Virus record (IMG/VR): IMGVR_UViG_3300033121_001593
Location: 1-64,000 of that record
DNA: 64,000 nt
Strand: one strand, 5' to 3'
DNA from: a virus
Lineage: Duplodnaviria; Caudoviricetes
Position 1 is the first letter of the stretch, and each line of letters opens with the position of its first letter. The position numbers were made by a program, and so were the translations under genes. Below the pieces are notes generated by a model, which saw nothing but the letters and a program-made list of their open reading frames with translations, was not told where the DNA came from and searched no databases. Positions 10,141-35,306 of the stretch are shown in pieces.

Positions 10141-10520
10141 GATGCCGCCTTTTGTACCGTGTCCATAATCAGCCGGCGCGCCAGATCGTCATCATAGACG
10201 ACCGGGATACCGGTATAGGCGACGATATTAACGACGGCCTCTCGACCGGCCGCGACCGGTTCGGCTAGCTCCAGCACCCTGGCGATAGACTGCTCGTCAC
10301 ACAGGATATACCGCCCGGCGGCGTCTTCGACCGAGACCGCTCCGTAGATGTAACGGGTCACGACGATGGTCAGCGGCTTTATCCGGGGAAGCTGGGCCAG
10401 GCAGCGCAGCACGCTGTCGAGCGTGAGATCGGCGAACGGAGTCGGGGATGCCGGCACGGGGGGAAGGAAGGCCGCCATCAGCGCCGGCAGATCGTCATAG
10501 GGAAATTTTAAGTCAGTCAT
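10137..10520 (-). CDS. hypothetical protein
   Basis: GAGG RBS directly after promoter. Confidence 0.65.
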   Translation of the reverse strand: MTDLKFPYDDLPALMAAFLPPVPASPTPFADLTLDSVLRCLAQLPRIKPLTIVVTRYIYGAVSVEDAAGRYILCDEQSIARVLELAEPVAAGREAVVNIVAYTGIPVVYDDDLARRLIMDTVQKAAS

Positions 10521-10529
10521 AGTACCTCT

Positions 10530-10557
10530 ATTCTAACATGGTTATTCACCGTGTCAA
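10530..10557 (-). promoter_or_regulatory. sigma70-type phage promoter
   Basis: TTGACA-16-TAGAAT. Confidence 0.7.
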
Positions 10558-10673
10558 TAGGCGCTTGCTCGTGCCGGCCTGCGCCTAGCCGCCCGCTACG
10601 CCCCAAAAATCGGGGGTAGGTGGGCTTTTACCGCATGGGGCCGCGTATCACTACCGGCGGCCCGCAAATCGCC

Positions 10674-32086: not shown

Positions 32087-32090
32087 CTAG

Positions 32091-32357
32091 CCGTCAGCGT
32101 ACTGGCTCAGAGCCAAACTTGCAACGTATCTCTCTCGCCCGTCAAAAAGCTCTGGCTGAGTAATCAGCGGAGCGAGAGCCTGGCCGGGTCCGTGATGTGG
32201 CGCAATTGTGCCGCAGTCACATCTGCCGCGGTTAGGTTGCCGAGAATTTCGGCGAGCCTAGTCCAGGGAAGCCGCGCAAGCGGAGCAAGTAAAACGAGGC
32301 GTCGGTACACGCCTATCGCCCGCCGCCGGTTGGCAGCCGGCACCAGTACGCTGACGG
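32091..32357 (+). ncRNA. structured RNA module (~265 nt)
   Basis: 15-bp perfect closing helix CCGTCAGCGTACTGG/CCAGTACGCTGACGG, internal hairpins. Confidence 0.7.
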
Positions 32358-32373
32358 TGACGCAAGACCTTTG

Positions 32374-32520
32374 CGGGACGTAGCTCAGGAATGGCATAGA
32401 GCGTCCGACAGACAGCCGGCACAACAGCCCCGACGACCAAGGGCCTCGGTCGGCAGCGCAGGGAATGGTCACCCCTGGGGTCAGTCGGAAGGACCGGGGT
32501 TCAAGCCCCCGGCGGCCCAG
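32374..32520 (+). ncRNA. tRNA-like RNA with 74-nt structured insert replacing the anticodon loop
   Basis: TAGCTCAG..GAGC D-arm, TCCGAC/GTCGGA stem, GGTTCAAGCC T-arm. Confidence 0.75.
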
Positions 32521-34032: not shown

Positions 34033-34363
34033 ATTCTACTGGGACGTTCACAGCCAAGGCGACATCGAAAGCCTGTTCATCGCCGACGACGAGGCGGTCG
34101 ATGCTGTGCTTGGTATGAACGTCTACTTTGGCGAAGTGCTCGGCAAGCACTCCGAGGTCTACGGCACGCTCGACGCCGAGGACTTGACTATCGTCAGCCA
34201 AGAGCCGGGCGTGATCGCTGATCTTGTGCGCCTGTTTGCCAGCGATAGCCGGGCGAAGCATGGCACGATCTGCGGGCTTAACCCCCTGCACTACCTGCGC
34301 GACGATGAAGGCGACGAGGTAGAATTCCCGTTGAAACTCGTCAAAACTGACCCCTTGACATAG
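34013..34363 (+). CDS. conserved phage hypothetical protein
   Basis: LYRFYWD..GDIESLFIA..VYFGEVLGKHSEVYG. Confidence 0.75.
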   Translation: MTQTLYRFYWDVHSQGDIESLFIADDEAVDAVLGMNVYFGEVLGKHSEVYGTLDAEDLTIVSQEPGVIADLVRLFASDSRAKHGTICGLNPLHYLRDDEGDEVEFPLKLVKTDPLT

Positions 34364-34382
34364 TGAATAGGCGCGGTATAAT
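34355..34382 (+). promoter_or_regulatory. promoter of tRNA / tRNA-mimic cluster
   Basis: TTGACA-16-TATAAT. Confidence 0.85.
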
Positions 34383-34418: not shown

Positions 34419-34488
34419 TGAGGCGGCAAAAGCGGAGGGCCTAAAAACCCGATGCGGGAGCCTTACGGTTCGACTCCGCAGCGCCTCA
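34419..34488 (+). ncRNA. degenerate tRNA-like element
   Basis: TGAGGCG/CGCCTCA stem, CGG-TTCGACT-CCG T-arm; no canonical D or anticodon arm. Confidence 0.4.
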
Positions 34489-34598
34489 CATGCGTCGTTC
34501 AATGAGAAGGACACGGGCCTTAAGCGAGCTGGCTCAAGTAGCCGGCAGCGCAGGGCGCGCAATGGTGGCTGAGAGTGCCACCCGCGAAATGAAAATCT

Positions 34599-34670
34599 GG
34601 GCGTTTAGTTCTAGCGGGAAAACGCTGGTTCCGCACACCAGAGTCACGAGTTCAAGTCTCGTAACGTCCA
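34599..34670 (+). tRNA. tRNA-Ala(CGC), atypical C33
   Basis: G3:U70 and A73; CTGGT-TCCGCAC-ACCAG. Confidence 0.75.
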
Positions 34671-34700
34671 CCTAGCCGGCGCAGTAGGCCGGTTCATCAT

Positions 34701-34801
34701 GGGCCTGAAGGCAGTAGACGGAGGCAATTGCCTCCCTCCGGGAGCGCGCTAAGTCCGTGAGGATGACGCGAGCGGGGTTCAAATCCCCGACGGGTCCACC
34801 A
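34701..34801 (+). ncRNA. mini tmRNA-like RNA 1 (tRNA-like domain only)
   Basis: GGGCCTG acceptor with G3:U70, stemless D-loop ending AGAC, T-arm, encoded ACCA. Confidence 0.65.
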
Positions 34802-34806
34802 AACCT

Positions 34807-34879
34807 GGGCGAGTAGCTCACTTGGGAGAGCGCCAGTCTGGCAGACTGGAGGCAGCGGGTTCGAAGCCCGCCTTGTCCA
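34807..34879 (+). tRNA. tRNA-Ala(GGC)
   Basis: G3:U70; CCAGT-CTGGCAG-ACTGG; canonical cloverleaf. Confidence 0.9.
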
Positions 34880-34927
34880 CTAGGTCGGGAAGCGAGAGGC
34901 AATCCCTCAGCGCACCGGCCGCGCCTT

Positions 34928-35011
34928 GGGGTCACTGTCGAGGCGACTTCAGCCATCACCGCTCCGGCCGGGCGGCGGCTGAAAAAGGGTTCGATTCCCT
35001 GTGGCTCCACC
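34928..35011 (+). ncRNA. mini tmRNA-like RNA 2 (tRNA-like domain only)
   Basis: GGGGTCA/TGGCTCC-A-CC with G3:U70, stemless loop ending CGAC, helix TTCAGCC/GGCTGAA, T-arm. Confidence 0.65.
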
Positions 35012-35165
35012 TAGCGTTTAGCCCGCACCTGTGACTTGTCCGTGGCCTCCTCGCCGGGGCAGCGGGCTAAACGCGAAAAGCCTGGCCGGCCCGATACGTA
35101 TTAATCGGCAGCCGTGCCGCCCGCGTTCAGCGCGCCGGCCGGGCATCATGAGCCAGGAGGCCAGA

Positions 35166-35306
35166 ATGGTCTATCACGAATTCATTGTAGACGGTCGGCC
35201 TCGCCGGCACAAGACCCTTGACGAGTATCTTCGGCGGGGCCTGAGAAAGTGGCGGCAATCGACGCGAGTCGTACCCCGCCGCATGAAGTGGTGGCGCGTG
35301 ACTTGA
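35166..35306 (+). CDS. small basic protein (46 aa)
   Basis: AGGAGG RBS 5 nt before ATG. Confidence 0.4.
   Translation: MVYHEFIVDGRPRRHKTLDEYLRRGLRKWRQSTRVVPRRMKWWRVT

Follow-up and report, generated by a model that had tools for sequence, protein, structure and literature searches.

What can a short RNA do for a phage if it has the alanine identity of a tRNA, and neither an anticodon nor a tag reading frame? Two such elements, mini-1 (34701-34801) and mini-2 (34928-35011), lie in the first 64,000 nucleotides (hereafter the window) of the 143-kb Caudoviricetes record IMGVR_UViG_3300033121_001593 of IMG/VR, which has ~63% G+C and is 97% complete. A preliminary description of this DNA presented them as miniature transfer-messenger RNA (tmRNA)-like alanine acceptors that lack the mRNA domain and are interleaved with two tRNA-Ala genes, and took them for SmpB or EF-Tu decoys that blunt trans-translation or for tag-less rescue RNAs. 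Both sets of coordinates agree with the sequence, in which G3:U70, A73 and a T arm can be read directly in either element, and the interleaving was confirmed by ARAGORN and Rfam. As set out below, mini-1 and mini-2 are almost certainly real structured RNA genes, and their sequences make them probable alanine acceptors that would be unable to decode. That they interfere with or bypass trans-translation, as proposed for a similar RNA of mycobacteriophage DS6A, is an analogy that we put forward tentatively.

The acceptor stem is fully paired in both elements. In mini-1, GGGCCUG (34701-34707) pairs 7/7 with CGGGUCC (34791-34797), G3:U70 included, followed by A73 at 34798 and an encoded CCA (34799-34801); in mini-2, GGGGUCA (34928-34934) pairs 7/7 with UGGCUCC (35002-35008), again with G3:U70, and A73 at 35009 is followed by CC (35010-35011). 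The T arm of mini-1 (34773-34789) reads CGGGG-UUCAAAU-CCCCG, with a G.A base pair at its foot that adds a layer between T stem and acceptor stem, while that of mini-2 (34985-35001) has the loop UUCGAUU and an A.G at the base of the stem. Folding of mini-1 left the D region unpaired and gave three internal helices, namely the hairpin GGAGGC-N4-GCCUCC at 34720-34735, a small CUC..GAG hairpin and a variable arm CGCG..CGCG. The minimum-energy and centroid folds of mini-2 are the same cloverleaf (z -2.35), in which a D hairpin with a 4-bp stem and a 3-nt loop (GUCG-AGG-CGAC, 34937-34947) is followed, in the position of the anticodon arm, by a rod (34948-34983) of 7 bp and 6 bp with a 5-nt loop. A 7-nt anticodon loop on a 5-bp stem is absent from both elements, and they are therefore not expected to decode. 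The stemless D loop ending in GAC that had been described for both thus holds for mini-1 as far as the unpaired D region goes, but the GAC becomes GUC or UUC in its homologues and mini-2 has a D stem; likewise, no tag frame replaces the mRNA part, but the three internal helices of mini-1 go beyond the short hairpins that had been described there.

Homologues were sought in relatives, that is, Logan and NCBI contigs carrying the same array of tRNA and tRNA-like genes, which were reached through homologues of the two flanking open reading frames (ORFs) in a large protein collection. By identity of the neighbouring protein these are L087 (58 kb, 70%), L089, L090 and L091 (75%), L094 and L095 (85%) and L101-L105 (92%), and L100 also belongs here. 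Mini-1 is one of five distinct sequences of 90-117 nt, termed family M1, which is present in at least five related phage contigs and follows one plan: a 7-bp acceptor, an unpaired D region of 12-13 nt, an invariant hairpin, the CUC..GAG hairpin, a variable arm (CGCGCY..RGCGCG with a loop of 4-30 nt) and a T arm whose lowest pair is G.A. Pair 4:69, the variable arm and the T stem show compensatory changes. The 6-bp stem of the invariant hairpin closes a loop of 4 nt whose sequence is free to vary (AAUU, AAAU, GGUA, UGUA), and over its first 62 nt mini-1 is matched with 100% identity in L100, as against only 71% identity in the adjacent ORF. The five M1 sequences have neither a reading frame nor a stop codon in common, in agreement with the earlier statement that an mRNA domain is lacking. 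At 34720-34744, the hairpin pairs a Shine-Dalgarno-like GGAGG with an anti-Shine-Dalgarno-like CCUCC and is followed by CCUCC/GGGAG, a possible competing hairpin; the invariant hairpin may be a ribosome- or mRNA-directed motif.

Mini-2 belongs to a second group. Its acceptor differs only by compensated changes from those of E3 (GAGGCCA/UGGCUUC, with G3:U70 and A73), a third anticodon-less alanine-type element of the window, and of X2 (L101 5333-5407, GGGGCCA/UGGCUCC), so that by sequence mini-2 is a paralogue of both. The T stems of the group co-vary (CCCGG/CCGCG versus CGAGG/CCUCG), and the interiors are nearly unrelated, being a tetraloop hairpin, an extended hairpin, a long rod or 40 weakly structured nucleotides; they differ also among the E3 homologues of L087, L089, L090 and L101. 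Compared with L101, the window has an extra 237 nt (34750-34986) that stand between the 5' and 3' parts of an M1-like gene, indicating that the array is a mosaic between relatives and that mini-2 may be chimeric.

A scan for a T arm joined to a 7/7 paired acceptor stem with G3:U70 and A73 returned six sites in the 143-kb genome, compared to 0.03 per first-order Markov random genome (maximum 1, n=30), and a chance origin of the signature is excluded. The combination also occurs elsewhere, since ~875 kb of unrelated phage loci yielded three further distinct anticodon-less G3:U70/A73 RNAs against ~0.2 expected; these are 78-143 nt long and receive no ARAGORN call. In nine non-canonical elements, that of DS6A included, position 3:70 is G:U in 9/9 and the discriminator is A in all, whereas 2:71 is G:C or A:U and pairs 4:69 to 7:66 each occur as two or three pair types, with compensation. 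A single transition would turn a G:U pair into a stronger one. The invariance of G3:U70 beside covarying neighbours therefore argues, at the level of sequence, for selection on recognition by alanyl-tRNA synthetase (AlaRS), as against decay and as against a purely structural role. G3:U70 is enough for AlaRS to charge minihelices, and it is the acceptor stem and T arm that are retained between paralogues and orthologues whose interiors are almost wholly different.

The likely source of the elements lies in the same array. The acceptor stem of mini-1 equals that of tRNA-Ala(UGC) in L095, and in L087 the positional orthologue of tRNA-Ala(CGC) (10505-10604) carries an insertion of ~30 nt in the D loop, and where the anticodon arm would be it has a 9-bp stem closed by an 8-nt loop; it retains G3:U70 and A73 and looks like an intermediate in the remodelling of a tRNA into a mimic. 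On these two grounds the mini elements look like descendants of phage tRNA-Ala genes and not of tmRNA fragments. They share with tRNA-Ala and the alanine minihelix (RF00005) the identity set G3:U70 and A73, the T loop and the processing context, the 3' sequence A73-CC-UAGC being common to the true tRNAs of the array, and they lack a 7-nt anticodon loop, U8 and a normal D arm.

Membership of the mini elements in the tmRNA family is, from their sequences, not established. With the Rfam tmRNA model (RF00023, gathering score 47 bits), the DS6A element scored 34.7, M1 of L101 16.8-25.4, X2 23, mini-2 11.1 and mini-1 9.2 bits. Mini-2 aligned end to end (E 0.004 in a 105-nt search), as did X2 (23 bits) and M1 of L101 (up to 25.4 bits). 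In the alignments of X2 and mini-1, the model columns that are filled correspond essentially to acceptor stem and T arm, common to tRNA-Ala; those of X2 and DS6A skip 312-314 model positions, and in the mini elements the D-loop and GGAC columns stay unaligned or mismatched. No mt-tmRNA or alpha, beta or cyano tmRNA model matched at E<=10, and at gathering score no Rfam model did so, including tRNA (RF00005, 29 bits). Matches at E<=10 were limited to sub-threshold ones to tRNA-Sec, mascRNA and tmRNA, the best clan match of mini-2 being tRNA-Sec (21.9 bits), and the 3' half of mini-1 matched mascRNA weakly (21.4 bits; gathering score of RF01684 42.5 bits). ARAGORN called neither element with default settings and, with introns allowed and thresholds lowered, produced noise (42 calls in 8 kb); it called no full-length tmRNA in the whole genome. 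Hence, of the searches suggested in the preliminary description, those with ARAGORN and the mt-tmRNA model were negative and the tmRNA covariance model gave a weak match under its gathering score, and the tRNA-like-domain signature of tmRNA that had been read in both elements does not extend to the D-loop motif, which is not conserved in M1.

Three other identities were considered and rejected. A split tmRNA with a separate tag piece had a candidate in an 'ALAE-stop' hairpin at ~32150-32175, which reads ALAE, LPAE and SLPE in relatives and so lacks conservation as coding sequence, and the closed mini RNAs offer no open helix for a second piece. An attP-type fragment of a host tRNA or tmRNA gene was rejected because both acceptor strands are present and pair. 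As for protein coding, the ORFs over the region cross a bona fide tRNA gene, and indels among homologues are not multiples of three.

The closest known counterpart is the 'TLD only' tmRNA of mycobacteriophage DS6A, in which a tRNA-like domain (TLD) occurs without a coding sequence (CDS) (tmRNA Website tmID 11587; PMC4131195, PMC11915505) and which we placed at JN698994 28478-28557. The DS6A gene has been described as 'little more than the TLD', and its RNA is reported to inhibit tmRNA upon expression in E. coli (PMC4131195, PMC11915505). Like the mini elements, for which this is probable, the DS6A RNA is actinophage-encoded; it measures ~80 nt and combines a G3:U70/A73 acceptor and a T arm with neither anticodon nor tag frame. 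Its acceptor GGGGCCG/CGGCUCC is identical to that of M1 in L087 and L094, its T loop UUCGAUU is that of mini-2, and a hairpin replaces the rest of tmRNA, a layout that mini-2 repeats with its D hairpin and single rod; DS6A, like the present phage, also encodes RtcB. On the other hand, DS6A has kept the D loop of tmRNA (UGG..UCGAC), its H2a stem and a GCAC that precedes the T arm, whereas the present phage has three paralogues per genome inside a tRNA array, with a D stem in mini-2 and, in mini-1, three inner helices that depart from the one-rod layout of the TLD-only form. BLAST found no similarity between the DS6A element and the mini elements.

Alanine-type tRNA-like domains without a tag frame also occur as CDS-less tmRNAs of jakobid mitochondria and, in ~65-bp forms, of Mallomonadaceae plastids (PMC11915505), but those are clear tmRNA homologues that stand alongside SmpB, whereas here tmRNA homology cannot be demonstrated and the phage has no SmpB. 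The mascRNA/MEN-beta RNAs (RF01684) are likewise tRNA-like handles that are cut by RNase P and RNase Z and receive CCA; they differ in being eukaryotic, and the likeness goes no further than acceptor stem and T arm. The stable RNAs C and D (species 1 and 2) of phage T4 are small and non-decoding and are processed with the tRNAs of the T4 cluster, so that, likened by description only, they too are non-decoding RNAs inside a phage tRNA operon, and we know of no alanine identity set described for them.

Taken together, the mini elements look like remodelled tRNA-Ala converging on the CDS-less tmRNA design, and since they share the architecture of CDS-less tmRNAs, ribosome rescue would be their most likely field of action. 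They would be co-transcribed with the two tRNA-Ala genes from a consensus early promoter and excised like tRNAs, with RNase P cutting at the 5' end (U at -1), 3' trimming and then CCA completion, for which the phage has its own CCA-adding-type enzyme. Most probably they would be charged with alanine by the AlaRS of the host, for which an acceptor stem with G3:U70 and A73 is enough. The charged RNAs could then draw AlaRS, EF-Tu, SmpB or stalled ribosomes away from host tmRNA, and during infection tagging would be blunted or rescue would proceed without a tag. Several observations weigh against this proposal, for which we claim somewhat less than an even chance. The tmRNA scores of the mini elements fall far under the gathering score of 47 bits, and the match of mini-1 lies in the T arm only; M1 keeps neither the D-loop motif of tmRNA, GG..UUCGAC, nor the GGAC that precedes the T arm, and mini-2 has a D stem, unlike the stemless D loop of tmRNA. 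A conserved SmpB-binding surface is hard to reconcile with such hypervariable interiors, and EF-Tu may bind less tightly to a T stem that has a mismatch at its base, G.A in M1 and A.G in mini-2. A gene for SmpB was looked for in the phage genome and not found, and no orthologue with the interior of mini-2 was seen, even in relatives 88-97% identical in the flanking DNA.

In four phages, the stop codon of a conserved, small and very basic ORF (46-54 aa) runs into the 5' end of an alanine-type element, and this is the sole contextual hint that ties the E3/X2/mini-2 group to ribosome rescue. The TGA covers nt 1-2 of E3 in the window, L089 and L090, and a TAG overlaps nt 1 of X2 in L101. From this arrangement, RNase P cleavage at E3 or X2 should leave an mRNA that ends in U or UA and thus has no complete stop codon; the cleaved mRNA would be a non-stop message, or its stop would be restored by addition of A. 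The ORF matched no Pfam family, and its weak feature resemblance (0.84) to group II intron maturase fragments is a lead only. One could go further and regard the three alanine-charged RNAs and the small basic ORF as one phage system that re-routes ribosome rescue, in which maturation of E3/X2 by RNase P makes the ORF mRNA non-stop, or A-tailing restores its stop, the tag-less alanine acceptors compete with host tmRNA so that stalled phage products are freed without a degradation tag, and the fast turnover of the interiors reflects an arms race with host factors; we consider it a long shot.

The elements form part of an array (Table 1) driven by a promoter also kept in L094, L095 and L101; no terminator-like site was found from this promoter (34355) up to 35700. 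All 10 ARAGORN tRNA genes of the genome lie within 32.0-38.3 kb, mixed with many other structured RNAs. E0, a tRNA-shaped RNA of 71 nt, has the acceptor UGAGGCG/CGCCUCA and the discriminator C, without alanine identity, and is 89-93% identical across six relatives (L089-L095). A conserved motif GUCGU..AAUGAGAAGGACAC stands directly 3' of E0 and recurs right after E3 (35378-35408). The long hairpin 3' of mini-2 is 97% identical in L094 and L087. The canonical tRNA-Ala(CGC) has C33 in its anticodon loop (UCCGCAC) instead of U33, which is near-universal in tRNA anticodon loops.

Table 1. Features of the array, related elements of other phages and genes for RNA-handling proteins (positions in the window unless a contig or the genome is named)
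Feature	Position	Strand	Basis or remark
Sigma-70-type promoter TTGACA-16-TATAAT	34355..34382	+	12/12 consensus matches
E0, tRNA-shaped RNA	34419..34491	+	acceptor/T-arm scan
tRNA-Ala(CGC), canonical cloverleaf	34599..34672	+	ARAGORN; Rfam tRNA 49.6 bits
mini-1 (family M1)	34701..34801	+	sequence, fold, homologues
tRNA-Ala(GGC), canonical	34807..34880	+	ARAGORN; Rfam tRNA 57.6 bits
Stem-loop hp2	34883..34927	+	conserved; 5' of mini-2 here, 5' of E3 in L087 (sequence comparison)
mini-2	34928..35011	+	sequence, minimum-energy and centroid folds
Long conserved hairpin	35013..35076	+	3' of mini-2 here; 3' of M1 element in L087, L094, L101
Small basic ORF, 46 aa	35166..35306	+	translation; strong Shine-Dalgarno
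E3, third anticodon-less alanine-type element	35305..35372	+	scan; just outside 34701-35011
ORF plus element, window	35166-35372		
ORF plus element, L089	1658-1877		
ORF plus element, L090	1087-1306		
ORF plus element, L101	5169-5410		
Further anticodon-less RNA, L077	5465-5542		IMG/VR; same in L078, L080
Further anticodon-less RNA, L048	5115-5198		IMG/VR
Further anticodon-less RNA, L074	7660-7802		IMG/VR; same in L075
TROVE/Ro60 protein	genome 95196-96647	-	outside window
PARP/WGR (PARP-like) protein	genome 109862-111055	-	outside window
CCA-adding-type nucleotidyltransferase	genome 115025-116347	+	outside window
RtcB	genome 125987-127342	+	outside window

Other roles can be imagined for such an array. 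The acceptor/T minihelix might be a scaffold or punctuation mark that recruits RNase P, RNase Z and the CCA enzyme, so that a long early transcript is cut into separate RNAs and mRNAs capped against exonucleases and alanine charging is incidental. The alternation of tRNAs, tRNA-like elements, closed hairpins and a small ORF without terminators would suit this, as would the shared motif starting immediately after both E0 and E3, the hypervariable interiors, the plain tRNA scaffolds with inserts elsewhere in the array (32374-32520) and the weak mascRNA match, which recalls such processing handles. However, processing needs neither G3:U70 nor A73, yet both are invariant in the nine non-canonical elements, and the array contains in E0 a tRNA-like handle that lacks alanine identity, so that this identity is not a by-product of the scaffold; the explanation is on the unlikely side, roughly one that we would expect to fail three times out of four. 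A conserved non-Watson-Crick pair at the T-stem base, for which non-proteinogenic tRNAs with weak EF-Tu binding offer a parallel, would also fit alanine donors that escape EF-Tu and serve a non-ribosomal transferase, or decoys for toxins attacking tRNA 3' ends or aminoacyl-tRNAs. The RNA-repair set of the phage, RtcB, a CCA-adding-type enzyme and Ro60, is of a kind characteristic of phages that have to face defences directed at tRNA (PMC7824862). A search of the phage genome for a FemAB-type transferase gave none, and with no candidate partner the proposal is purely inferential and in our view unlikely.

The same Ro60 gene raises the possibility that the elements are Y-RNA-like partners of Ro60, with a tRNA-like module that opens at the acceptor end and not at the 'anticodon' end. 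YrlA RNAs (RF02553) are tRNA mimics in genomes that encode Ro60 and RtcB, as this one does, and that of M. smegmatis is cut by RNase P and given CCA (PMC4201824); no canonical YrlA reached threshold in the genome from 76 to 136 kb or elsewhere tested, and M1 of L087 begins GGGGCCGAAG, fitting the motif GNCGAA(N)G. But this motif is short and frequent (19 matches in 11 kb) and absent from mini-1 (CCUGAAG) and mini-2, and ~60 kb separate the elements from the Ro60 gene, a distance that for YrlA genes is normally no more than 4 kb (PMC4201824). The YrlA model moreover misses the mini elements, its only weak match being a T hairpin with the D arm of tRNA-Trp, and the arms of the mini elements follow the canonical order, while YrlA is permuted (T arm, closed 'acceptor' stem-loop, D arm), has its RNA ends in the Ro-binding stem and has no requirement for G3:U70, which makes a Ro60 partner quite improbable. 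Decay, which the preliminary description had named among the outcomes that would undo its proposal, would make the elements, and mini-2 in particular, decaying or chimeric tRNA-Ala pseudogenes produced by recombination among repeated alanine acceptor genes. The mosaic array, the 237-nt segment that separates mini-1 from mini-2 relative to the M1-like gene of L101 and the interior of mini-2, which has no homologue, are what it would predict. Alignment of the homologues speaks otherwise: every helix of mini-2 is intact, its acceptor remains 7/7 paired through compensated differences from E3, X2 and M1, M1 and E3 persist in relatives with a neighbouring protein only 70-75% identical, and G3:U70 never drifted, leaving decay very unlikely. 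Finally, M1 might encode a very short tag, G-(E)-R-(A)-stop, and be a one-piece tmRNA in miniature. Tags of two codons have been described (PMC11915505). In 4/5 M1 sequences, GGA-(GAG)-CGC-(GCY) is followed by UAA or UGA, a stop codon shifted by 1 nt makes up for a 2-nt deletion in the window, and ARAGORN at an 80% threshold proposes a tag in mini-1. That call, however, is at the noise level of 42 calls in 8 kb, and in L089 and L091 there is no stop at this place and the frame continues into the T arm. The homologues disagree in their upstream frames, the 'tag' falls within paired segments, H2 helix and pseudoknot are lacking, and the ending is unlike any ClpXP-type tag; we give such a tag hardly any credence.

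The terminase of the phage has its closest match in Streptomyces phage TurkishDelight (51% identity), and the host is therefore probably an actinobacterium. Outside the Logan and NCBI contigs, searches for the elements gave little. In 50,697 phage records, BLAST found no elements related to the locus, to those of L101 or to that of DS6A, and exact and degenerate patterns for M1 and E3 had zero matches in IMG/VR. A portal protein query in IMG/VR found no close relatives and the neighbouring ORF only relatives of <=46% identity, all without the array; the M1 pattern had two matches in JGI metagenomes, both by chance in bacterial genes.

Further structured RNAs were noted in the surroundings. The ~285 nt without ORF 3' of tRNA-Tyr (32088-32373) show few differences from L087 and L101, except in a variable tract near the 5' end, and are far better conserved than the neighbouring protein genes (70-92% protein identity versus L087 and L101), thus probably representing a large structured RNA. 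Directly downstream (32374-32520), a tRNA body with normal D and T arms has an anticodon stem that encloses a folded insert of ~76 nt, whose motif GGCAGCGCAGGG..AAUGGU recurs at 34547-34566. Three T-arm motifs occur in ~100 nt at 36299-36451 (G53 at 36353, 36384 and 36430), an arrangement that is conserved in L101-L105 and that ARAGORN forces into one 97-nt 'tRNA-Arg'. At 36730-36800, a tRNA-Phe-like gene with a 6-nt anticodon loop (UGACGA), labelled 'tRNA-???' by ARAGORN, is also called in L087, L090 and L101-L105.

To our knowledge, DS6A is the only cultured phage with a documented CDS-less tmRNA-like RNA, and the other cases on record come from a few organelles. The present locus adds that alanine acceptors of this type can occur as several paralogues per genome, that, to judge from their sequences, they can arise by remodelling of phage tRNA-Ala genes, that G3:U70 and A73 are under apparent selection while the interiors turn over, and that one sub-family overlaps the stop codon of a conserved small ORF. 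If interference with trans-translation is true, phages would possess an RNA-only route to switch off or bypass the protein-quality tagging of their hosts; if it is not, the elements would represent a class of RNAs that are charged but do not decode and that use alanine for reasons still to be explained.

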